Source: a virus
Strand: one strand, 5' to 3'
DNA: 64,000 bases
Virus record (IMG/VR): IMGVR_UViG_3300020477_001611
Coordinates: 1 to 64,000 of that record
The notes under the pieces were generated by a model. The model was not told the DNA's origin and did not search any database. It was given only the letters and a program-made list of their open reading frames with translations. The translations under genes and the position numbers were made by a program. Below are positions 36,709 to 60,382 of the stretch, piece by piece. Each line of letters starts with the position of its first letter. Positions within the stretch are counted from its first letter, which is position 1.

Positions 36709-36903
36709 TTATTTTCCTTTGAAGCGAGCCACCACGTCAACGAAACCTTGTGTTCCGACGTATGCTGTGGCGATGATCATCCACTGCTCTGAATCTACTT
36801 TTTCTGCCAAGAGCAATCCCGTTGTAGTTAGCCAAACGAGAAGTTTCTTTGACATAAATCTCTCTAAATTTTGATCTATAAATGCTTTTGCTGCTGCCAC
36901 CAT
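36709..36903 (-). CDS. Putative holin-like small membrane protein
   Basis: Start reassigned to ATG 36903 (GGAGGG RBS); 64 aa, two hydrophobic segments, basic C-terminus. Confidence 0.55.
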   Translation of the reverse strand: MVAAAKAFIDQNLERFMSKKLLVWLTTTGLLLAEKVDSEQWMIIATAYVGTQGFVDVVARFKGK

Positions 36904-36917
36904 TCTACCCTCCGTGG

Positions 36918-36986
36918 TTATTTGGTTCCGCAGCAGCATGAGCAGCTACAGAGTTCCTGACAATTACAATTTTCACATCCGCACAT
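36918..36986 (-). CDS. Metallothionein-like micropeptide, 22 aa, 9 Cys (MCGCENCNCQELCSCSCCCGTK)
   Basis: Hand-found. GAGGA RBS 7 nt before ATG; fills the gap between the SbcCD fusion and the holin-like gene. Confidence 0.75.
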   Translation of the reverse strand: MCGCENCNCQELCSCSCCCGTK

Positions 36987-36996
36987 TTTTTTATCC

Positions 36997-39900
36997 TCAC
37001 TGGTTGACGTAAGCATAACCGTCGTCTGTCTTCATAATGTCGATGGTCATATCTACAGTGTCTTTTAAAGACTCTATGTGAGTAATTAGTATTACAATAT
37101 CAAAATAGCTCTTCAACATCTCCAGTATGCGCGTAAAGCTCTCAAGATGTTCTTCGTCTAAAGCAGCACCGGGTTCATCCAAGATAATAAGATTGCACTT
37201 GGGCATGTTGCTAATATTTAACAAAGCAATCCTGATGGCAACGGCGGCTAGAGTTTTTTCTGCTCCAGAACCATTTTCAAGAGGCCGCGGCTCATGTTTG
37301 GGATGATGAATGAAAATATCAAGTTTGTTACCATCTTTTTCAAAATAAACTTCAAAGTTTACAATATTGGCCAACACCTTTGAGATTTCTTCATTAAGAA
37401 CTGGAAGTGCCTTGTTGATAATATCAAAAGCGATCCCGTTGCTGTGCATACACGTTAAAAACAGATGGTGCGCTGAGTATTCTGCACTCAGCCTATCTTG
37501 CTCTGTTTTTAAATGCTGTAAGTTTTCAAGTTTTTGTTCCAAGGCGCCATGTGAGCCAATCAAAGAATAGAGGCACTCATCACACTCATCAATCTTCTTT
37601 TGTCTCTCTTCGACTTCATTCTTTTTTGTTGCCAACTCTGAGTATAGTTTTTCTGTATTCTCTAGAAGTTCTCTATTTTCTTCGTAGTAGCGAATCTTTT
37701 TCCATAAGTTTTGTATTAATGAAGTGCTCTTTACTAAATTGCCTGACATTCTTTCATGTTGGAATTTTAAATTCATCAGTAGAGACTCTTCATCTTTTCT
37801 CTTATCAGTCAGCCTGTTAAAGTTCTCAATCCTCGACCTGATTTTAAAAAGATCTAGTTTTTCTAACTCAGTGGCCTTTAATGATAGCCTCTCTTTAAGA
37901 TCTTCAACAACCTTTTCAGCTATCTCCACCTGCTTCTTTGCGCTATTTGCATCTTTAATAAACTTACAGGTGGTAATAAATTGATTACCACAAGGCACTT
38001 CATTTAAAATATTTGTCTGCCTATTAAAATTGCTAAGATCTTTTTCAGAGTGTCCCTTCTTTTGTGTAAGTTTTACAATCTCTTTTTCTATCTCATCAGC
38101 GCGGTCAGATTCGCTATTAAGATTAACAATGCCGAGTGCGCTCAAGAGCTTTTCACTCTTTTGTAAAAAAATCTCTTTTTCCTCGATTTGCTGAAGGGTA
38201 TCTTCTATCTTCTTAACCAATTCATCTTCGCGAACTTGCTGATCAAGCAGTTGCTGCCTCACCTCTTTAATATGAATAATTTCGTCTGGCAAGTCAAAAA
38301 GGGCTGCTTCCAACTCCGTAATTTCCTGTTGAAGCGCACCCAACTCTATTTTTAAACCAGCGCACTCATTTTTCTTTTTCGCTACGTCTGCCCCCGCTTC
38401 AAAAATTTCTTCTTTGACCTTCTTCATGTCCTCGTCATAATCAATATCTTTGATCCTTTTTAGGACCCCTCGCAGTTCTGATACCTCTTCTTTAGCTAGC
38501 TTAAATTTCTTTTCAAAGAACTCCAAGTCCAAGAACTTAGCAAGGATCTCCTTGCGCCTTGTCGAGCCTTCGTTAATAAACTGCATAGAGCCAAGCTGAG
38601 AAGACATAGATGTTAACAAAAAGTCTTCTAGCGTTCCTAACATTTTTTTAATGTTTCTATCAGTGCCGTGTCTTTCAGTAGAATTAAGGTTGTATGTCCT
38701 GTTCATAACGTTATCAGTGCATACAAATTCTACATCGGTTTTTGCCTCATTCGTAACAGCGCCTTTAAGCTTCTTAACGTATTTATTTGATTCCCTTGAA
38801 ATCGTGTAAGTTTTATTACCCGCTTCAATCTCCACCACCGCAGACCCTTGATCCTTGTGCTCATTGATAATGTTGTAATTCTTTCGAATATTTTTAGAAG
38901 TATTATTATAAATTGCGTAGAGTAAACTATCAATGACGCTAGATTTACCACTATAGTTTTTACCAAAGATTCCAACAGTTCCAGCAAGTTTAGTAAAATC
39001 CAGTTCGTTCCCTTCCCCATAATTGAAGAGATTGTCCCACTTGAAATTTTTGATTTTCCACGAAACATTTCTAGTGGTATCCTCACTGGCCTCTGCCAAG
39101 GTGTTGTATTTTGCATTAAGAGAGTATACTTCATTTAAAGTCTCCTCATCAATATTGTACTCCTTTAAATATTCCGCTATAAGTTTTTCTTGTACACCCT
39201 GATCACGCAAATTTTCATGAATGACAGAATCTACTTCTTTTTCGACACTAATCCGCTTTGCGGCGTGGGCGCGATTCAGGAAAGAAATAGACTCTGGTTT
39301 AAAGCGTTTCTTGGCGATATCCACGGCTTTTCTGAAGATTTCGATGCTCTGGTTGTCTGAGGAAACTAAACGCAGCCTAGCGCCTTCTGGGGGCCTTGCT
39401 GACTTGGGGATTCTTCCCTTGGGAGTCAAGTTGATCGTGAAGAAAGGTTTGGGGTTGATTAGCTGATGGAAATCGCAAGTAAAGTTTTCTTTATCCTTGA
39501 TGTCCCAAAGTAAAAATCCCTTGTCTAGTGATTCTCCAAAGTTCTGTTGAATAAGAGAACCCGGGTATCTAGCTTTGCCATGATTATCCACAATCTGGTT
39601 TGTTCTGTGGATGTCTCCCAACAAGCCATAATCAAAATTCTCTAAGAAATCGATGTCTATTTCGCCATGCTCCATAACCCAGCCAGTGTCCGTTTTTGAT
39701 CCAGCAACAGCACCGTGATAAAGTGCTAAGTTGATTTTGTTCGGGTCTGATGGTGGCGCCCACTTGTCCTGATCAAGAATAGAAAGAACATTAAGCACAA
39801 TGCCCCCACCAACATCCACCTCTTTTGTATATTTATGAAAGTGAATGTTGGGGTCTTCCAACGCCTCAACAAGTGGTGTAACCGCGTCAAGACGGCTGGA

Positions 39901-40158
39901 GTTTTTAACATTACAATCGTGATTGCCCAAAATCATATGCAATGGAGCAATCTTCGCTAGGCTGGTGAACAGCCACGAAGTTAAATTAAAATACTCTGGA
40001 CTCAGATTACACTTGGTGTGTGCTGTGTCTCCTGTATTAACAATAATGTCTGGTTTAAGTTCTTCCAGCTTATCAAATAGCTGTTGAAAAACTTCTCTAT
40101 ATTCATAGTGATACTTATAGTTTCGCACATGAATATCGCTAATGTGCGCAATTTTCAT
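36997..40158 (-). CDS. Fused Mre11/SbcD nuclease - Rad50/SbcC ATPase (gp47-gp46 fusion)
   Basis: N-terminal SDIH, TGD, GNHD, YHG, GDIH, YPGS; then Walker A GKNYSGKS, coiled coil, SGAEK signature, Walker B IILDEP and ITH, all in one ORF. Confidence 0.93.
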   Translation of the reverse strand: MKIAHISDIHVRNYKYHYEYREVFQQLFDKLEELKPDIIVNTGDTAHTKCNLSPEYFNLTSWLFTSLAKIAPLHMILGNHDCNVKNSSRLDAVTPLVEALEDPNIHFHKYTKEVDVGGGIVLNVLSILDQDKWAPPSDPNKINLALYHGAVAGSKTDTGWVMEHGEIDIDFLENFDYGLLGDIHRTNQIVDNHGKARYPGSLIQQNFGESLDKGFLLWDIKDKENFTCDFHQLINPKPFFTINLTPKGRIPKSARPPEGARLRLVSSDNQSIEIFRKAVDIAKKRFKPESISFLNRAHAAKRISVEKEVDSVIHENLRDQGVQEKLIAEYLKEYNIDEETLNEVYSLNAKYNTLAEASEDTTRNVSWKIKNFKWDNLFNYGEGNELDFTKLAGTVGIFGKNYSGKSSVIDSLLYAIYNNTSKNIRKNYNIINEHKDQGSAVVEIEAGNKTYTISRESNKYVKKLKGAVTNEAKTDVEFVCTDNVMNRTYNLNSTERHGTDRNIKKMLGTLEDFLLTSMSSQLGSMQFINEGSTRRKEILAKFLDLEFFEKKFKLAKEEVSELRGVLKRIKDIDYDEDMKKVKEEIFEAGADVAKKKNECAGLKIELGALQQEITELEAALFDLPDEIIHIKEVRQQLLDQQVREDELVKKIEDTLQQIEEKEIFLQKSEKLLSALGIVNLNSESDRADEIEKEIVKLTQKKGHSEKDLSNFNRQTNILNEVPCGNQFITTCKFIKDANSAKKQVEIAEKVVEDLKERLSLKATELEKLDLFKIRSRIENFNRLTDKRKDEESLLMNLKFQHERMSGNLVKSTSLIQNLWKKIRYYEENRELLENTEKLYSELATKKNEVEERQKKIDECDECLYSLIGSHGALEQKLENLQHLKTEQDRLSAEYSAHHLFLTCMHSNGIAFDIINKALPVLNEEISKVLANIVNFEVYFEKDGNKLDIFIHHPKHEPRPLENGSGAEKTLAAVAIRIALLNISNMPKCNLIILDEPGAALDEEHLESFTRILEMLKSYFDIVILITHIESLKDTVDMTIDIMKTDDGYAYVNQ

Positions 40159-50954: not shown

Positions 50955-50964
50955 TATAATTAGC
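50955..50964 (-). promoter_or_regulatory. Candidate late promoter (GCTAATTATA)
   Basis: Overlaps the stop of the giant gene, 16 nt upstream of the next ATG. Confidence 0.45.
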
Positions 50965-53900
50965 CATAATATGCTTTTTCCCACGATACATGATCTTTAC
51001 ATGGCATCCAATATTGACCCATAGCATGTACCTGCCCTTGACAGCCTTCGTTGGTGTAGCTCTCAGATGTTGCTATTGCAGCGTTTCGATCTTCATAAAG
51101 CTCTTCTGGCGGGATGCTGGCTAGTGGATCCTCTTCTTCCTCTGCCGGCTCCTCTTCTTCGTAAACACAACTGCCATCATCAACTGTTGCCTTTTCATTA
51201 TAGTTGTTGGCGTTAGAATCCGTGCACCCATAGATGATTTCATCCTCAATGCCAGCCTCAAATGGGTCTTCCTCTTCGAAAGCGCCGAGGTCGGACAGGT
51301 CACCAGTAAAAAGCTCATCAGATCTTGAAGGAGGCATCTCATCTGCGCTATCCTCTAACACGCACTTGCAATTTTTACACACATAGCCGCCATCAGTATC
51401 GCACGTTCCAAGGGCTCCGTCACTGCTGCACTCCGCGTCGGGATTAGGCTCACAAGAAACCGTCACGTCGCTAGATAAGGCGCTCATGGTGGTCTTGCAG
51501 GTGTGACACTCTGGGCAGTCATCATCGTTCTTGCAAACCGGCTCTTCTTCTTCCCGTGGCGGCACATATGGTAGCCCGCACTTAATAACCAATTCTTCAA
51601 AAGATTGTCCCTGTTCTGGCGACAACTCTATCCCCAGTGATAAAAGCTCTTGTAAACGAGCCAACTCTTGCAGTTCGGGTGATGAACAAATTGCTTGTGT
51701 TGGCGCAGCGGTGTTTGTTGGCGCTGAGATGGTAAGTGGTTCGCCAAGGGCTGCTCTTTTCGCAATGACCTCTTCAGGTCTAATATAGCCACCACCACGA
51801 ATATCTTTTATTCTATTGGGTGCATCGTTTCTGACCTCAAAACCGACTTCCATCTTACCTAGCTCGATCAACGAGAAATAATCATAGGGCCAATTATAGG
51901 AAAAGCGCTGGGCGATTGGATAACGATAAGCGGGCACCCCAGTCAATGCTGCTTGTGTAACATAATAATCGTATTCGGCTCGCTTTTTAATTTTGAAAAT
52001 ACGCCATCTTATATCTTTAGGTATCTTTTTGTCCCTAAATCCATTATATTGAAAAATTGTTGGTGATAACAATTCGCCATCCACCAATGGATGTTCTATA
52101 ATAACAGTCTCAGTTTCGGGGGTAACAGCTTGGGAGGGCATCACCCCCTGCCACCATTTTGATAGATCTGCCTGTGTTAGTGTAGAAGTAAACTCGCTAA
52201 TATACATTGAAAATGGTGGATTAACATTGCCATATTCCTCCTTTGTAGTTGGCACCCTTTTGGCCTGATCTCGTTTCCAGACGAAATCATAAATAGGGGG
52301 CACCACATACTTATCCATTTTCTTAATCATATCTGCAACCGAATTAGTCGTTAGGCGGTCCTGCCTTACATCGGCATAGCTTTTTTCAAAAATGTTAAAT
52401 GGAATTTCAAAGTATGTTTCTTCACCAGTTTCACAATCTACATAAAAAGGTATGGCACATATTGCTTCTTCCACAATTTGTTCAGCCTTAAATCGCCCAA
52501 TGGGCTCAGGTCGACTTGCAAAACCACAGGCTTCCACCAATGACCCTGTTAGTTCGCGGTTAATTGCATCTGGATATACGGAGTTTCCGCTCCACGAGGC
52601 CTTGCTCAGTTTCATGTTGAGGCGCGTGGCAGTGCCCGAAAGTTCTGTAGCTGCAACATCTGAAAACTGATGCCACATTCCCCTAGTACCGCACACGGTG
52701 CCCGCCGTGCCGATCGAGTGGGGATTTGGCTCGGCCGTTGGTGCGACTGGGTTGGCTGTGCTAGCATCACCATCTTTAAAGAAGTTTAATACAGGCGCCT
52801 CCCACTTTGTTCGTATTGTCCACCTCTTATCTGCATCAAGCTCAAACATGTCAATACTTGCTGACAAAGCCATGAAGCTGGCCGACGAGGGTACCATGGA
52901 ATTGCTGTTAATGGCAGTGGCACACGCATTATTTCCAGCGCCATTTAGCTCAGTCCAACTGTTTGAATTTCGTATGGTTGAATTGGCAATGATATCCGAA
53001 AATGAAAAAGAAGATTGGCCGACCTTTCCGCTACTTGGCAGTAAATTGGTGGGATCGAACTCTAATGTCGCTCTTGTGTAGGCGGGGGCGGAATAATGGA
53101 ACGAGGAGCCGCCGAAGACATCGCCAATGCAGGCGGCGGGGGCGCCGCAGCCATAACAGTTGTTGGCGGCAACAAAATCAAAATACGCCGCTTGTCCCTC
53201 ATATGCCATAAACATCACCCCGGGTGGGGCATGATGAATATAGGGATATGGTCCAAAAGCTGCGGGGTTTGAATATTGTACAAAAGAGACTGGCTTTGTT
53301 ATTATAACGTCCATTGCAAACTTTTTGACGCCGGCGCTTGAACTCAATGGCCCTTCAAAGGTCCATGATGATTCTGGCGCAGATTTAAAAGTTGTTAGGC
53401 CATCTAGGAAAAAATTGGGCACTTCTGCAAAAAAATTATGAGCAGCGTACTGGTAAAGTCCATCTGTTTTATTGACGGCACCGGTGGTGTCTTGCACTAT
53501 CGGCATCGGACTATGGGCCGAATAATAGCTGCCGCTACTGGGGCATATTTGAAAAATGTTGCCCACATATTCATGAGGGGCCAATATTGCATCAAAGGGT
53601 GCGCGTGATTCAAATTCTTGATCAATGCTTGCAGATGCGCGGCCGGCGATAGTCGATTTATAAGGGAAATCACAAGCAAGGCCGGCCTTGATGGAGTTAT
53701 AGCCAATCCCGGGGGCCCAAAATGGCATTAAAGAAGTCTCATAAGTGGGAGAGTTTCCAAGCGGAATGCTGGACGGCGTATTTCCGGGCCCTTGGTCGTA
53801 GTCTGAATTGGCATAAGACTGAGAGAAAATCTGCGCCAACTGAACTGTTCTTTGTTGTGGGTAGAAACCATCCTTGGGCAAAATTTGCTTTACGACATCA

Positions 53901-56900
53901 AACGCCAGTCTTATGGCTGTCGGCTCTCCATAATAGTCTTTCAATTCCTGTAAGTAAGTTAATTTACTAGTAGTCGCATATCTTTCTATAGAATCTCTCC
54001 TAGATTCTGTATCTCCCGCAGGAGCACCGACGCCGCCATGGCCAGTAAAGCCGCTACCGGTCAGGGCGTATTCATATATATTGTTAACATAATTGCCGCC
54101 ATGAGAAATATGCACTTCCCTAACAAAATTAGAAATTGTAAATTCGGGCATGAGGGAATAATCTTGCCCAATTAACTTTGCATCTTTTGAAAAATCATCG
54201 TAAGAGGTAAAAAAGGCACCAGTGCCAGCCTGAGCCTGTACCACATTCTTAGCGCGGCTTGTATCTAGTGTGAATGCATATCGAGAGTTTATTTCGCCGG
54301 CGACGATGGCGCCTTGGCCAGTAGAGCCTGTATTTCTCATTATGACGCCCGATTCTTCATGATCTGCTGCGGCGCCGGTCGTAGAAACATCCATAGGCCA
54401 GCCGCTGGCCGTTATATTGGTGCCAGCGATATCAGCAAGAACATTATCTTCGCGTATTGCGAGAAGATCGCTCTTCCAAAAAGAAACGTATTGTTCTCTT
54501 TCGCGTATTAAATTGCGGAAAACATTTTCATCCTTTGGAAATAGAACCTCAGAGTATAAAATGTTCTTCCACTTGCCGCTTAATTTATAAAAATCTGAAT
54601 TTTGTAAATCTCTTGTAGGAGCGTTTAAATCAAAATTCTTATTTTCTATTGCATTCTTTTCCTTGCTGTAGTCCCGAGCGAAATAATGATATTCGTTGCC
54701 AAAAGCATATTCTATGGTGCCCGTCACATCATCGATAGCCTGAATTACCTTTTTATGTTTAATTGTAACGGGCGATTGCACTAAATCAGTGCGACTGTCA
54801 ATTAGCTTATTTCGATTATCATCAAGCACTTTTCTCACATTTTGATAAAGACTGTATTTCCTTAAATCATTTGCCGCTTTTGTTTGACGCACCCGAAGTT
54901 GTTTCCAAGTCGGCCAACCATATGGACCATTATTGTTTAACAAAAAGGTATTGGTGGAAATAGCCTGATATTGCTGTGCGTGAGTTTCTCCAAGCGTATA
55001 AATATTAAAGTACGATGAGGTGGTGGAGGCAGTTGTAAATATATTACTAGCTGTATCAAAAGTGCCTAAAACTATAGTATTATCTCCAACAAAAGAAACT
55101 CCTTGCGTATTGCCGCCATAAGTAGCAGCCTTTGCGCCCGGGACGGGGTACCATGAGAAGTGGCCGCCGCTGATGAACTGGATGCTAGCTGAATATTCAT
55201 AGCCATAAATTGGTGAATAATCACTTGCAGTAGCATCATTCTCAAACCCGTTTCCGGTTCCATATTCAGGGCCCGAACTTGTCAAAAGGCCCGGAGCGGT
55301 TGTAAGAAGTGCCTCGTTTGGATATCCCCTCTTTTGAGCAATCCAAGAGTCTGCTATCCAACGATACTGCACATCCGACTTGGGAATGCCGTGGCCCACA
55401 TAGGCGTTGTCGTATACTGTCTTGGGAGATTCCAACGATGAGGATATCTGATAGCCCACGTTTCGCTGATTCTTTTGATAAGAGCCGCTTGGGGCCAACA
55501 AGACCGAATCGTAGCCGCCACTAAGAGCGTGCCTTGTTAGCAGTGTCTGCAGCGCATTTCTCACTACCAAGTTTCTGTAAGGAAGGGCATTGTAGACAGA
55601 ATACTCTGCACTTTCCACATCAAGGGCGTTTTCTGCAGAAGTTTCGGGGCCGCCGGGTGCGGAGAACCTATTAACAATAATGCTATCAGTGCTGCCCGTT
55701 AAATCGCGGCGCAAGGCTGCTCGATCATCGAAAGTTATATTGGTTACAGTTTCTATTGCGTCGTTAGTAACGCCGCTGCCGGTGGTACCCAGAGAGAGAA
55801 TATAATATCTATTATTTTCGCGGCGCCCAGATGTTTGTACGATCTCGTAATTGTAATTATAGTTATTATAATTTATTCCAATTGAATTCGAAACTTTAAT
55901 GTTTGCTATGTTTACTGGGCTTTTGGCGCCTGCCGCTCTTAAAAGAGTTCCCACTGGGCGGTCTTTATCATATTCACCGTCAACTATTCTTGGATTCCTA
56001 AGCTCAAAGCCATCTGTTGCATGGTCGGCAAAGTTTAATTGATAGCCCTCTTTGCGAACTCTGGCGTCTCCAGACGAAGAATAGTTTAAAAGATTTCCAT
56101 GTCTATATTGATAGCCGCCGACCTGTTCTTCGGTGTAAGTTCCTTGCATTGGCACTTCTTTATCAAAATGATAAGAGTCAACATGGGCGTTAACAAGGTC
56201 GGCATTATTCCCCAAAGTCGTTGCCAATATTTGTTGATAAGCCGAGGGTGTCTCGCCCGATGCACTCAAAATGGTGAATGGCAAATAAGAGTAAGGTGGA
56301 AGTTGTGTTGAATCTTCGTTTGTTGAAACTGAAATTGGGAAACGGCGCCGCCCATTAGAAGTTTCATCGCGTGAACCAGAATAAGTATAATACGGCGTAT
56401 TATTAATGTTTTTAACCGCATTCGACAGGCCGGCACGAGATAGGATGGAAATTCCATCTGTTGCCGCCCTTTCAGAAAAAGTCCCTAAATAATAATTTGG
56501 TCGCGATTCATTGTTTAAATTCACGCCTGCGTGGAGAGATCGGTATGCAGCCATATCAAAATTGCTATAAGGCGTTGCGCTACGAGAGTAAACCATGGCT
56601 GCATTATTTTGTAAAGCATAGCGGCTGTGGTTAGCTGGTGCACTTACATTTAAAATACCCGTTGAATCGCGGCGGGCGCTGAAGCGCCACCAGATACGAC
56701 CCTCAGATTGATTTGTGACCACTGGGTCAGTAGGTGCCCTGATCTTACTAACCGTGGGGTAATCCTCTAATCGTGGCTCCCGTTGGTTGGGGGTGAGCCC
56801 CTTAGAACGCTGCATGTCTCTGGGGAATGGAGCATTTCCTGCGAATGAATTCCTAATTGGAATTTGAAGATTGGGATCCGCTCCGCTACCATCCTTTGGT

Positions 56901-59900
56901 GGTGGGGGTGGACTATCATCATCAAATTCGGGATCACCGCCTCCGCTGCCGTCGCCGCCTTGACCGCCTCCGCTCGAAGGTGATCCCTTGACTAAATCCA
57001 AATCTTGCAATTCTTTTATCTTTGTATATTTGTGTCTATATTTATTCCTCTCCAGAATATGATTTTCAATAACGCTGCGAGCCTTATCGGCCGCGTTCGC
57101 AGAGGCGGGTATCAAATTGTTTAAAACGCCGTCTAGGGCTCCATCAATCCATTTATATAAATTGATATACTTTTCAACATCCGGATTGTTACTAATATTT
57201 TGGAAAAATAAATACCGCAACTTTTCCATAGCCTTATAGTTGGGCCGATACATGTTTACCGGTTCGCCAATTAAATTATTAAAATCACTAATCGATGCAA
57301 AAAAGCCCAACATCGCCTTAGAGATCGTATCGTACATACTGGCCTCGACGGCAAAGAAGTATTTATTTGGCCTTGATAGGCGTGTGAAAAGAGTGTCGTC
57401 TCGCGAAAGAACCTTTACCAAGTCTGAAGTATAAAGATTTTCAGGAAGTTGCTGACGGCTGCTATCAATAAACTTAAAATCTACCACATTCGTAGAGGAT
57501 TCACTAAACTCACTTCCTTGGCCGGCATAATTTGGCCCAACAAGATCAGAATAATTGCCTAGGGGATATCGATTAACGGATCCTGTTGAGGAGCCAGAAG
57601 TGACATCTTTAATTAAAAATTTTCCGCTTGAGTCACTGCCCGTAACATTGTCAAAGTTCCAATACAACGCTAGCGTCTCTATTTTTGGAATATAAGTCCC
57701 CGAAAGAAGCCCCTCGTAAACAAAAGTATTCCTTTCGGGGTACAAACGCCCATATGAACTTACGTCCATAGCGTGCTTTTGAATCTCTTCGTTGGTTAAA
57801 TAATCATACCACACGCGGGTTGAGACAAGGCGCGTATTTGTTTCATTTTGAAGCGCGCCAGTAATGTTAGTCCGATCCGCCCCAAGATAAATACGCTTAC
57901 TGGAGCCGGTCAAAAATGGCCCTGCAGTGTCCGCTACATTCACAGATGCTGAAACAGAAAACTCATTTATTTTAGTACCCAAGCTATAATTGACGCCATA
58001 AAACTCGTAACTAGCTGTAGGGGAGGAGACTGCCTCAGAAGAAAATGGATATTTTTCTGGTCTTATTCTGAGAGCAAAATTCCACTTCTGATTTTCGTAC
58101 ACATTGTCATAGTAGGATGAAGTGAGGGTTGGAAACTCTCCCTGTGAAGATGTAACATAAAAATAGGTTTTATTATTATTGTTGGTGTGTGCATATACCT
58201 TTAAGCCCGCAGGATCATTAGCAGGAACTGTAGTATCAGTAGAATTTGGAGTGGTGCTTGCACTATGGATACCAAACAAAGAAGAAGTTTTTAATTTTGG
58301 CAAATTCCCATCGGGAAAGTTTACAAATTTTGGAAAAAAGATTTCGGCTTCATAGGTAAAGGGAATATCAGCATCAGAGGCTGCGGGCAGATAACCATTA
58401 TCCCCTGTACTACTAGCTGCCAAAGATGGATCAGGATATTGATAAACCACTGCTTGGCGGCTTGTTGAGCTTTTATAACCGGAAAGATCTATTACTTTAT
58501 GCTTAATTGCGGTATTTTCACGATTTTCTCGTAAATCATATTCTTGATTATCAGCATACATGTTGAGGCGAATCACCTCATCATCCACACCAAAACACCG
58601 GAACAAGTTTCTAAAGGCTTTCTCGGTTCCCTTCGCTTTGTTAATATAGGCTAAATTATTATAAATGTTTTGAAAAATTAAGTTTTTTACTTTGAAAACT
58701 TTTTCTTCATAAAGCCTTTTATCGTCTTTCGACAAGACCTCCTGAATTACCCCAGTGTCTATAAACATGCCGGGAATATCAAAACCAAAAGATTTTAAAT
58801 TTCTATGAGTTTGTGGATTTGGTTTAATTTGAGATCCACTAACATAGGAGGGATCCTTTAAACTGGTAAGGGCCCCGATTTGCCCATACAAAACGTCCAA
58901 ATAGCTTCCCAAGGTCTGGCAGGTTTTTTCAATTAAATAACCATTCGCGGCGTCCTCGTCGCGGGCCCACTGCGGGATTGAATTATAAAGGCTTCCAAAA
59001 TTATTTATATCATAGTCGGAACCAGACACAGTCATGTTGGTTTTATAAGTCACAACATCTGGCTGTGTCGCATAAATAACCGGGTCTCCCTTTTCAGTTG
59101 CGACGCCACTCAATGTAATCGCACTTCCGGTTTGCCTAGAGTACGACGAATTATAGCCAGACCAGACACCGTTGGTTAAGCGACCAGAATAATCTAGAAC
59201 AACAGAATCCACCGAAGACGTAAGCGTTATTCCCTCATTAAATTTATAATAAACACTGAGTTTTAAGGGGTCATCATCATTGACCTTCGATGTGTCGGTA
59301 TTACCACCGCCCCCAATATCAAAGAAGTAGTTACGTCCGATCTGCTGGGCGTTTCGCGCCTCTTTCCAATAACGAAACTCATCAATTGAGCCAGAAAGGC
59401 CGCCATAGCCTGTTAAGCCAAAAGTTCCGGCGAGGCTGTCTCCACAGGCGCCTATCGTTCCAATTAGATTACCACTCATAGCTGTAGGCAACGCAGTTGA
59501 CAAAGTAAAATTTACTTCCGTTTCAAAATTTCCATCAAGATAGGCAACAATCCTCATGTTTGTGGCCGAAGTTTCCTGCATAGTGATGGCGTAGTGATGC
59601 CATGTTGAATCTGCAAAAGTGGTAAGAGAGGGAAGGGTGAGATTGGTATAAAACTTGTTTACCAAGGCCGGATTATACTGAGCGTAGGACAGCCAAAAGG
59701 TGTTGTTGTTTAAGCTATGGCGGATATACAACCCCAACTCGTGGCCCGGGTTGCCGTGGCTTGTTTGACCTCCACTAACATGAAATATCATTTCATCAGT
59801 AGTGCCGCCGGCTCCGACGAGTGGTGGAAAATCATCCTTCTTCATCCAAAACTCGATAGTGCTGCCGCTGGCCCAGTTAGCCTCTAGGCTGCCAACTTGA

Positions 59901-60382
59901 TTTGTAGTCGTATCATAGATGAGATCCTTTGTAAAACCATCAAAATAAACATATTGAGGATCGTTACTTAAACCAAAATTACCATTTGTAGCAACCTTTG
60001 TACCCCATGTCGGCGTGCCAAAGTTGGCATATCCCGTTTTGCGCGGATATTCGTTTTCTAAAACATATTGGCCGATCGGAGTTAAATCATTTTCAAATTT
60101 TAATCTTTCGGCTCGTGAGCCATCATAAGGGTATTGTCCCACAATACGATCGACGGTATCAACGTAGTATCGTTTTGCAGATCCAAATTTGACAAAGTTG
60201 GCAGGGTCGCTGTAATCCAACTCTGGAATAAACTCAAACTTCTTTCTTGTGTATTCTTTGACATAGGCTGCTGACTCAACATCTGTTGTAAAAGACTGCG
60301 CAGAGCCTGATTGTACAGAGCGCAGTTCGGTAGTCGGACTTAATTGTTCGGCCTTGTTTCGTTTAAAAAACTTTTTTGTCAT
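50960..60382 (-). CDS. Giant baseplate wedge/fibre protein (gp7/GpI-like) with LamG domains, 3140 aa
   Basis: LamG motifs TIEFWMK, WHHYAIT, GSIDEFRYW; KAKGTEKAFRNLFRCFG (GpI-like KGT motif); Cys-rich C-terminus. Confidence 0.7.
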   Translation of the reverse strand: MTKKFFKRNKAEQLSPTTELRSVQSGSAQSFTTDVESAAYVKEYTRKKFEFIPELDYSDPANFVKFGSAKRYYVDTVDRIVGQYPYDGSRAERLKFENDLTPIGQYVLENEYPRKTGYANFGTPTWGTKVATNGNFGLSNDPQYVYFDGFTKDLIYDTTTNQVGSLEANWASGSTIEFWMKKDDFPPLVGAGGTTDEMIFHVSGGQTSHGNPGHELGLYIRHSLNNNTFWLSYAQYNPALVNKFYTNLTLPSLTTFADSTWHHYAITMQETSATNMRIVAYLDGNFETEVNFTLSTALPTAMSGNLIGTIGACGDSLAGTFGLTGYGGLSGSIDEFRYWKEARNAQQIGRNYFFDIGGGGNTDTSKVNDDDPLKLSVYYKFNEGITLTSSVDSVVLDYSGRLTNGVWSGYNSSYSRQTGSAITLSGVATEKGDPVIYATQPDVVTYKTNMTVSGSDYDINNFGSLYNSIPQWARDEDAANGYLIEKTCQTLGSYLDVLYGQIGALTSLKDPSYVSGSQIKPNPQTHRNLKSFGFDIPGMFIDTGVIQEVLSKDDKRLYEEKVFKVKNLIFQNIYNNLAYINKAKGTEKAFRNLFRCFGVDDEVIRLNMYADNQEYDLRENRENTAIKHKVIDLSGYKSSTSRQAVVYQYPDPSLAASSTGDNGYLPAASDADIPFTYEAEIFFPKFVNFPDGNLPKLKTSSLFGIHSASTTPNSTDTTVPANDPAGLKVYAHTNNNNKTYFYVTSSQGEFPTLTSSYYDNVYENQKWNFALRIRPEKYPFSSEAVSSPTASYEFYGVNYSLGTKINEFSVSASVNVADTAGPFLTGSSKRIYLGADRTNITGALQNETNTRLVSTRVWYDYLTNEEIQKHAMDVSSYGRLYPERNTFVYEGLLSGTYIPKIETLALYWNFDNVTGSDSSGKFLIKDVTSGSSTGSVNRYPLGNYSDLVGPNYAGQGSEFSESSTNVVDFKFIDSSRQQLPENLYTSDLVKVLSRDDTLFTRLSRPNKYFFAVEASMYDTISKAMLGFFASISDFNNLIGEPVNMYRPNYKAMEKLRYLFFQNISNNPDVEKYINLYKWIDGALDGVLNNLIPASANAADKARSVIENHILERNKYRHKYTKIKELQDLDLVKGSPSSGGGQGGDGSGGGDPEFDDDSPPPPPKDGSGADPNLQIPIRNSFAGNAPFPRDMQRSKGLTPNQREPRLEDYPTVSKIRAPTDPVVTNQSEGRIWWRFSARRDSTGILNVSAPANHSRYALQNNAAMVYSRSATPYSNFDMAAYRSLHAGVNLNNESRPNYYLGTFSERAATDGISILSRAGLSNAVKNINNTPYYTYSGSRDETSNGRRRFPISVSTNEDSTQLPPYSYLPFTILSASGETPSAYQQILATTLGNNADLVNAHVDSYHFDKEVPMQGTYTEEQVGGYQYRHGNLLNYSSSGDARVRKEGYQLNFADHATDGFELRNPRIVDGEYDKDRPVGTLLRAAGAKSPVNIANIKVSNSIGINYNNYNYNYEIVQTSGRRENNRYYILSLGTTGSGVTNDAIETVTNITFDDRAALRRDLTGSTDSIIVNRFSAPGGPETSAENALDVESAEYSVYNALPYRNLVVRNALQTLLTRHALSGGYDSVLLAPSGSYQKNQRNVGYQISSSLESPKTVYDNAYVGHGIPKSDVQYRWIADSWIAQKRGYPNEALLTTAPGLLTSSGPEYGTGNGFENDATASDYSPIYGYEYSASIQFISGGHFSWYPVPGAKAATYGGNTQGVSFVGDNTIVLGTFDTASNIFTTASTTSSYFNIYTLGETHAQQYQAISTNTFLLNNNGPYGWPTWKQLRVRQTKAANDLRKYSLYQNVRKVLDDNRNKLIDSRTDLVQSPVTIKHKKVIQAIDDVTGTIEYAFGNEYHYFARDYSKEKNAIENKNFDLNAPTRDLQNSDFYKLSGKWKNILYSEVLFPKDENVFRNLIREREQYVSFWKSDLLAIREDNVLADIAGTNITASGWPMDVSTTGAAADHEESGVIMRNTGSTGQGAIVAGEINSRYAFTLDTSRAKNVVQAQAGTGAFFTSYDDFSKDAKLIGQDYSLMPEFTISNFVREVHISHGGNYVNNIYEYALTGSGFTGHGGVGAPAGDTESRRDSIERYATTSKLTYLQELKDYYGEPTAIRLAFDVVKQILPKDGFYPQQRTVQLAQIFSQSYANSDYDQGPGNTPSSIPLGNSPTYETSLMPFWAPGIGYNSIKAGLACDFPYKSTIAGRASASIDQEFESRAPFDAILAPHEYVGNIFQICPSSGSYYSAHSPMPIVQDTTGAVNKTDGLYQYAAHNFFAEVPNFFLDGLTTFKSAPESSWTFEGPLSSSAGVKKFAMDVIITKPVSFVQYSNPAAFGPYPYIHHAPPGVMFMAYEGQAAYFDFVAANNCYGCGAPAACIGDVFGGSSFHYSAPAYTRATLEFDPTNLLPSSGKVGQSSFSFSDIIANSTIRNSNSWTELNGAGNNACATAINSNSMVPSSASFMALSASIDMFELDADKRWTIRTKWEAPVLNFFKDGDASTANPVAPTAEPNPHSIGTAGTVCGTRGMWHQFSDVAATELSGTATRLNMKLSKASWSGNSVYPDAINRELTGSLVEACGFASRPEPIGRFKAEQIVEEAICAIPFYVDCETGEETYFEIPFNIFEKSYADVRQDRLTTNSVADMIKKMDKYVVPPIYDFVWKRDQAKRVPTTKEEYGNVNPPFSMYISEFTSTLTQADLSKWWQGVMPSQAVTPETETVIIEHPLVDGELLSPTIFQYNGFRDKKIPKDIRWRIFKIKKRAEYDYYVTQAALTGVPAYRYPIAQRFSYNWPYDYFSLIELGKMEVGFEVRNDAPNRIKDIRGGGYIRPEEVIAKRAALGEPLTISAPTNTAAPTQAICSSPELQELARLQELLSLGIELSPEQGQSFEELVIKCGLPYVPPREEEEPVCKNDDDCPECHTCKTTMSALSSDVTVSCEPNPDAECSSDGALGTCDTDGGYVCKNCKCVLEDSADEMPPSRSDELFTGDLSDLGAFEEEDPFEAGIEDEIIYGCTDSNANNYNEKATVDDGSCVYEEEEPAEEEEDPLASIPPEELYEDRNAAIATSESYTNEGCQGQVHAMGQYWMPCKDHVSWEKAYYG

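Follow-up and report, generated by a model that had tools for sequence, protein, structure and literature searches.

Nine-Cys beta-type domains of metallothioneins comprise about 30 residues, and the fungal copper metallothioneins of the Neurospora crassa type have about 25 aa, with seven Cys that hold a Cu(I) cluster. The M(II)3Cys9 cluster is a common, standard metallothionein unit (PMC10612145), and metallothionein folding is dictated by the metal-sulfur cluster and not by the sequence (PMC3323870). In bacteria, the SmtA/BmtA proteins (PF02069) are 56 aa long and are characterized by Zn4Cys9His2 (PMC10119931, PMC3323870); BmtA adopts a zinc-finger fold in which aromatic residues and His ligands are conserved (PMC3323870). 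Bacterial metallothioneins are found in marine microbes and are often overlooked by annotation on account of their size (PMC3323870). Cys-dense short frames are also known from mycobacteria, where polycysteine short ORFs act as cysteine-responsive attenuators in which stalled ribosomes block RBS-sequestering structures (bioRxiv 10.1101/834739).

In this study, we analyzed a 22-codon frame with nine Cys codons in a stretch of viral DNA of 64,000 nucleotides (referred to as the window), and examined its relatives, its genomic neighbors and its possible function. We found that this frame is a real, conserved gene of uncultured marine phages. The most probable reading of its product, at about even chances and judged from its composition, is a metal-thiolate, metallothionein-like micro-protein.

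Layout of the locus and composition of the micro-peptide

The window is included in a 101-kb IMG/VR virus record, the completeness of which was 41% (CheckV). Its large terminase is approximately 40% identical to the counterparts in Microcystis phage Mel-JY01 and Flavobacterium phage immuto, and the source is therefore considered to be an uncultured marine T4-like phage. All genes around the micro-gene are located on the minus strand, in the reading order primase, RuvC-like resolvase, SbcD-SbcC fusion, micro-gene, 64-aa gene, five small ORFs, terminase and portal. The main features are as follows:

36997-40158, minus strand: SbcD-SbcC (Mre11-Rad50-like) single-chain fusion, 1053 aa, with Pfam Metallophos and SMC_N/AAA_23 in one ORF
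36999-36997, minus strand: TGA stop of the SbcCD fusion, read from the sequence
36994-36998, minus strand: Shine-Dalgarno (SD) sequence GAGGA of the micro-gene, overlapping the SbcCD TGA, 7 nt before the ATG
36918-36986, minus strand: micro-gene, 22 codons plus TAA (ATG 36986-36984, TAA 36920-36918), by translation
36875-36952, minus strand: predicted RNA hairpin (MFE -38.7 kcal/mol, z -3.2)
36908-36913, minus strand: SD sequence GGAGGG of the 64-aa gene, read from the sequence
36709-36903, minus strand: 64-aa gene with ATG at 36903, from the ORF list and hydropathy

Full-length relatives of the SbcCD fusion occur in 20 marine viral contigs, and Microcystis phage Mel-JY01 has a match of 30% identity. 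A DNA search of the region against 50,697 phage records gave no match, and a tRNA scan of the window detected none. The largest ORF in the window (3140 aa) is located at 50960-60382 on the minus strand.

Reading of the minus strand agreed with the initial annotation of this frame: GAGGA, seven nucleotides, ATG, 22 codons including nine for Cys, and TAA. The coordinates also bore out its placement of the frame between the SbcCD stop and the next RBS. The label "holin-like", which had been given to the next gene, was not borne out by the databases: the 64-aa protein had no match in Pfam or PHROG, and its nearest Atlas clusters were unnamed viral proteins. The five ORFs beyond it had no Pfam or PHROG match either, and hence neither a holin family nor an endolysin neighbor was found. 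A consensus sigma-70 promoter, claimed earlier, was not present near the frame, where the scan found only 9-of-12 hexamer matches 230-330 nt upstream, inside SbcCD; the region contained five such matches vs 2.0 +/- 1.4 in shuffles. Finally, the frame had been linked in function to the Zn-ribbon primase and SbcCD, but the conserved neighbor proved to be the downstream 64-aa gene instead. In loci L001 and L034, a gene of 244-260 aa lies behind SbcCD and separates it from the micro-gene, which nevertheless abuts the 64-aa gene, and a second phage lineage has wholly different neighbors. No metal-handling gene was detected adjacent to the micro-gene in either genomic context.

The product of the micro-gene has 22 residues, or 21 with the initiator Met removed. 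Nine of the 22 are Cys (40.9%), at residues 2, 4, 7, 9, 13, 15, 17, 18 and 19, which form CGC, CxxC, CNC, CSCSC and CCC motifs, and the numbers of F, W, Y and H are all zero. This count on the translated frame is consistent with the metallothionein-type composition that was noticed at first (41% Cys, no aromatics or His). Low mass (well under 10 kDa), Cys-dense motifs and scarce aromatic residues and His, by which metallothioneins are recognized, were all found here, and none of the ten nine-Cys variants described below (19-22 residues) contains an aromatic residue or His. Within the window, no other stop-free stretch of 22 residues reaches nine Cys; every other frame had at most six, and in 30 shuffles of the window the maxima per stretch ranged from 4 to 7. 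A scan of the whole 101-kb record revealed that the micro-gene is its only Cys-rich micro-ORF.

Conservation and distribution of the nine-Cys frame

A search of related phages for Cys-rich micro-ORFs at this locus had been proposed in the initial annotation, and conserved nine-Cys frames were indeed found. The first anchor was the SbcCD fusion, and the DNA behind it was read in 17 relatives. In L020, whose fusion is 79% identical over the C-terminal 175 residues, the same place is occupied by a 20-codon frame with nine Cys, the peptide of which has changed at 7 of the 11 other residues aligned with the window peptide (Met aside). A back-translated pattern of the first nine codons gave 14 viral and 15 metagenome loci, and further copies came to light when the 64-aa gene was taken as the anchor and when the pattern was loosened. 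In all, approximately 30 marine phage contigs carry relatives of 19-22 codons, in which 16 different ORF DNAs encode 10 different peptides. Every one of these keeps the nine Cys, in aligned columns, and the skeleton of the family is CGCxNCxC, 2-3 residues, CxCxCC and a final Cys. The non-Cys residues, length, net charge and choice between TGT and TGC are variable among relatives.

Because the search pattern itself fixes codons 1-9, the selection test was limited to codons 10-20. Positions 1 and 2 of the five Cys codons there vary at none of 10 sites, compared with 14 of 23 other sites (Fisher p = 0.0014), and the switches between TGT and TGC in Cys codons affect third positions only and are synonymous. 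When codon differences were summed over pairs, the synonymous to nonsynonymous counts were 181:232 in the Cys frame (ratio 0.78), and 0-137 synonymous vs 225-416 nonsynonymous in the other five frames (ratios 0-0.61). Antisense coding was considered and rejected, with stops in several members or a poor substitution pattern. An SD sequence is present 6-9 nt before the ATG in every type, and its GGA core at that spacing is invariant in 16 aligned relatives. A longer form of 32 aa, from an in-frame ATG at 37016, exists in the window and is not conserved in relatives. Most relatives have an in-frame stop two codons ahead of the SD-led ATG; therefore, the short form is the conserved one, and the 32-aa form is incidental.

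The expectation that gene callers would miss such a gene was also confirmed. The relatives were found by DNA pattern, and none of six variants was present as a protein in a collection of 15 billion proteins, the family being under the length cut-off of gene callers. At this locus, gene callers extend the 64-aa gene backwards through the micro-gene in the wrong frame (36709-36939, minus strand; P0002, P0007, P0009, P0010 and P0011), and the mis-called proteins have artefactual Leu- or Val-rich N-termini. A 76-aa ORF listed from 36939 is an artefact, namely the micro-gene read in another frame. From the run of Leu in P0007, a variant with five Cys in succession can be deduced.

Searches were also extended to cellular genomes. 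A strict N-terminal pattern had no match in bacterial and archaeal genomes of 185,579 species. A looser pattern gave 38 matches in the same species, which is about the chance number estimated for such degeneracy, and none of these 38 had an SD sequence, at least seven Cys in at most 25 residues, or a free-standing frame. In 401 genomes of Seonamhaeicola's family (marine Bacteroidota), a search by profile yielded only three partial matches (E 0.17-0.49), with the phage's own record as positive control at E 1e-7. So far as the genomes searched show, the peptide family appears to be phage-restricted.

Four types of nine-Cys micro-gene, A to D, were distinguished, for which the following loci are examples:

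This window (coordinates above), minus strand: type A/B member
L045, 4049-4114, minus strand: type A/B member
L001, 6958-7023, plus strand: type A/B member
L020, 551-610, plus strand: type A/B member
L022, 1593-1649, minus strand: type C, 19 aa
L040, 1810-1869, minus strand: type D, 20 aa

Members of types A and B, including others besides those listed, are always located directly before the 64-aa gene. Among loci with the 64-aa gene, the micro-gene is present in 12-13 and absent in 25, with clean boundaries. Comparison of L054, which has it, with L058, which does not, revealed a clean block of approximately 80 nt that consists of the SD sequence, the ORF and a short spacer. The micro-gene therefore behaves as a small cassette with its own SD. 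Types C and D belong to a different phage and lie near a 2OG-Fe(II) oxygenase gene, with unrelated small genes around them; from type C to type D, acidic residues become basic and one residue is gained, and the nine Cys are unchanged. Overall, the nine-Cys element occurs in three or more unrelated genomic contexts. A TGnTATAAT-like extended -10 was noticed by eye about 26 nt before the ATG of types C and D (L028, 5860-5895, plus strand, and the equivalent in L022). This sequence was not scored by a hexamer scan of their upstream region, and a promoter of their own was set aside.

Shorter relatives (types E, F and G) share the N-terminal CGCxNCxC module and have seven, six and four Cys, respectively. 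A seven-Cys micro-ORF of 17 aa with an SD and the shared N-terminal module is present in L098 (4133-4183, minus strand), in the gene cluster of type C at another position, and a six-Cys micro-ORF of 21 aa with the same two features is found in L091 (10346-10408, minus strand). Frames of 17-19 codons with the four-Cys module CGCxNCGC only were observed in L093 (9296-9349, plus strand), L094, L097, L100, L104 and L105; these six have a conserved basic-acidic tail, and their start overlaps the stop of the upstream gene. They may represent a one-site relative of the nine-Cys family. A metagenome contig (L037, 3426-3725, plus strand) encodes a 100-aa protein that opens with the nine-residue module of the micro-peptide (Met and CGCxNCxC) and continues into EF-hand_1 (Pfam 27.4 bits vs a cut-off of 25.4), with no obvious SD upstream. 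In addition, a 46%-identical relative (L005) has, at 2030-2125 on the plus strand, a different Cys-packed micro-ORF of 32 aa, with 11 Cys including a run of five and with its own SD; the SbcCD fusion lies about 900 nt further downstream. This frame may belong to a second family of Cys micro-genes in these phages.

The 64-aa gene, RNA pairing and alternative explanations

The 64-aa protein contains no Cys, and its hydropathy profile shows a clear hydrophobic segment besides a weaker one. The protein is widespread in phages, and its homologs are all hypothetical. Among 62 more distant homologs, ten from three clades have a fused N-terminal extension with a CxNCxC motif or a CxxC remnant, which is conserved within clades:

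L145 to L148 (L145, 601-816, plus strand): homologs with fused extension
L153 to L155 (L153, 601-816, plus strand): homologs with fused extension
L149 to L151 (L149, 601-810, plus strand): homologs with fused extension

The fused CxNCxC is the same motif as residues 4-9 of the micro-peptide, with 2-3 Cys only, and the remaining 52 homologs have no Cys element. Because such extensions occur in three clades of the 64-aa family, it is suggested that, in some phages at least, the Cys element cooperates with the N-terminus of the membrane protein. The micro-peptide might be a partner or regulatory module that docks on the N-terminus of the 64-aa membrane protein, perhaps by way of metal or thiol chemistry common to both, and tunes its activity, instead of being a general metal buffer. 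We consider this explanation unlikely, but it deserves to be taken seriously. The fused extensions, the predicted coupling hairpin described below and the invariable position of the type A/B micro-gene directly upstream of the 64-aa gene, even where a gene of 244-260 aa intervenes behind SbcCD, are all in line with it, whereas types C, D, E and F have other genes around them and no 64-aa homolog alongside. Moreover, a Cys element, whether fused or separate, is missing from most 64-aa homologs (25 of about 38 loci, besides the 52 distant homologs above), and two or three Cys are all that the fused motif offers.

RNA folding predicted a hairpin between the micro-gene (5' arm, 36952-36930, codons 12-19) and the 64-aa gene (3' arm, 36897-36875, codons 3-10); its loop would contain the stop of the former, together with GGAGGG and the ATG of the latter. 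The predicted pairing is kept in 16 aligned relatives, mostly by invariant or wobble pairs. A compensatory change was observed in only one of the 31 pairs, and both arms are also constrained by coding. With the cassette, the z values of the fold were -2.1 to -3.3, vs -0.06 and -0.8 in relatives without it; type C had no such fold (z -0.55), and another fold was preferred in L051. An Rfam search gave no family match. Codon usage differs along the frame: types A and B use mainly TGT for the first four Cys, on the N-terminal side, and mainly TGC for the five Cys that fall within the pairing half, whereas in types C and D nearly every Cys is encoded by TGT. Across the window's long ORFs, there are 80 TGT vs 52 TGC. 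Since the TGC-rich 3' half is predicted to pair with the start of the 64-aa gene, ribosomes that translate the micro-gene would probably open the RBS of this gene, and we take the 64-aa gene to be probably coupled in translation to the micro-gene. Both the translation of the frame and this coupling are what we infer from the patterns described here.

Such pairing raises the question of whether the frame is mainly a regulatory upstream ORF, the peptide itself having no role. The hairpin brings the Cys-dense 3' half together with the region in which the next gene starts, TGC is favored in the pairing half only, and there is a precedent in the mycobacterial polycysteine short ORFs (bioRxiv 10.1101/834739). 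Similar to these, the phage frame is a Cys-dense short ORF directly upstream of a gene, with a predicted RNA structure that might sequester the next RBS. On the other hand, the mycobacterial ORFs are leaderless and the phage ORF is SD-led, the downstream gene is not related to cysteine (the 64-aa protein has no Cys and no link to sulfur metabolism), and the Cys skeleton is also conserved where the RNA structure is absent, as in types C and D, which have a different downstream gene. Cys codons would suffice for an attenuator, which does not require a fixed nine-Cys skeleton, and it is the unpaired N-terminal half that is most conserved. The skeleton kept without the fold and the cysteine-unrelated downstream gene argue against an upstream ORF as the sole role, and we regard this explanation as improbable.

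An equally small chance is given to a translated Cys peptide with other chemistry, i.e. an Fe-S cluster ligand, a thiol or redox buffer, or the precursor of a modified peptide. The Cys conservation and synonymous pattern that support a real gene would suit such a peptide as well, and dense thiols are compatible with Fe-S ligation or radical scavenging; nothing specific speaks in its favor. For a modified-peptide pathway, there is neither a leader region in the peptide nor a modifying enzyme nearby, and against Fe-S binding stands the CxCxxCxC...CxCxCC spacing, which we take not to be a ferredoxin-type motif.

Finally, it is very improbable that the frame is not a gene but a chance open frame or a purely RNA-level element: for all its shortness and lack of a database match, it has nine Cys against a shuffle maximum of 7, all invariant across 16 DNA variants with synonymous changes, as well as a conserved SD, three or more unrelated contexts, antisense frames with stops or a poor substitution pattern, and no Rfam family match.

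Metallothionein-like reading and comparison with known systems

We return to the reading of the micro-peptide as a metallothionein-like micro-protein. Sequence searches of Pfam, PHROG and PDB with the peptide, the 32-aa form and the family profile gave nothing significant. Of the 24,736 Pfam models, no more than two came up, Metallothio_2 (E 2.7) and Metallothio_Euk (E 6.4), each with one member and not significantly, and the eukaryotic metallothionein profiles PF01439, PF12749 and PF02067 had no significant match. Atlas gave a weak lead to Metallothio_5 with a score of 0.84, below the lead level of 0.9. In the absence of a significant metallothionein match, the resemblance is one of composition and not of homology. 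PF02069 did not match the peptide or nine family members even at E <= 10, and membership in the SmtA/BmtA family was rejected on the grounds of no profile match, no aromatic residue or His, and a length that is too short.

The structure of metallothioneins is dictated by the cluster (PMC3323870), which fits the conservation of Cys only that was observed in this family. The peptide has no hydrophobic core and could obtain a structure only by folding its thiolates round metal ions in the reducing cytoplasm of the host; with no such core at more than 40% Cys, and with disulfides unlikely in the cytoplasm, metal-thiolate coordination would be expected. Most likely, it would form a small cluster of the metallothionein type, in which each chain holds about three Zn/Cd or four to six Cu(I). 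We know of no nine-Cys metallothionein domain as short as 19-22 residues, the usual size being about 30 residues, and a regular M3Cys9 cage may therefore be sterically strained in so short a chain. During infection, the peptide may buffer, store or hand over metal in trace-metal-poor sea water; free Zn in the ocean is picomolar (PMC3323870). In this lineage, its cassette of approximately 80 nt is inserted directly before the 64-aa gene, with expression probably coupled through pairing of the 3' half. We propose, at a confidence somewhat short of an even chance, that these peptides are phage-restricted and the smallest gene-encoded metallothioneins (19-22 residues, nine Cys), which capture or redistribute scarce Zn, Cd or Cu in infected ocean hosts and which, in this lineage, are co-produced with a small membrane protein and perhaps act on it. 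Metal binding, its stoichiometry and the biological role are here what we infer.

If metal binding is true, no ribosomally made peptide of the metallothionein type would be shorter, and the class would gain a viral example. The initial annotation knew of no characterized phage metallothionein of this size, and the phrases phage, viral, virus-encoded and cyanophage metallothionein were likewise not found in the literature searched. Trace-metal handling would then join the ways in which marine phages reprogram their hosts, in waters with picomolar free zinc (PMC3323870). In addition, the locus exposes a blind spot of annotation, in that a conserved family in approximately 30 contigs is missing from the 15-billion-protein catalog and the next gene is mis-extended through it.

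With regard to described metallothioneins, the phage peptide resembles the M(II)3Cys9 domains of vertebrates, echinoderms and wheat Ec-1 (betaE) in having nine Cys with CxC and CC motifs (PMC10612145). It also shares with these beta-type domains the absence of aromatics and His, the lack of a possible hydrophobic core, small size and a presumably cytoplasmic location. Unlike them, it is a free-standing single chain, is phage-encoded and has no detectable sequence relationship, and its metal cluster is putative. With SmtA/BmtA, the phage peptide has in common nine Cys ligands (putative in the peptide), a prokaryotic cytoplasmic and marine setting, and the tendency to be overlooked by annotation; the N-terminal CxCxxCxC spacing of SmtA/BmtA is also present in it. 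It differs from them in having no aromatics or His and less than half the length (22 vs 56 aa). Compared by description, it is similar to the Neurospora crassa copper metallothionein in being a single tiny domain of near-equal size with nearly all CxC-type motifs and small polar residues, but the latter is eukaryotic and has seven Cys with different spacing, whereas the phage peptide has nine. Judging from these sequence features, the phage peptide would in its action come closest to a free-standing nine-Cys domain of the beta type, which is longer, or to a copper thionein of fungi, which is less rich in Cys, by the sizes generally known for them.
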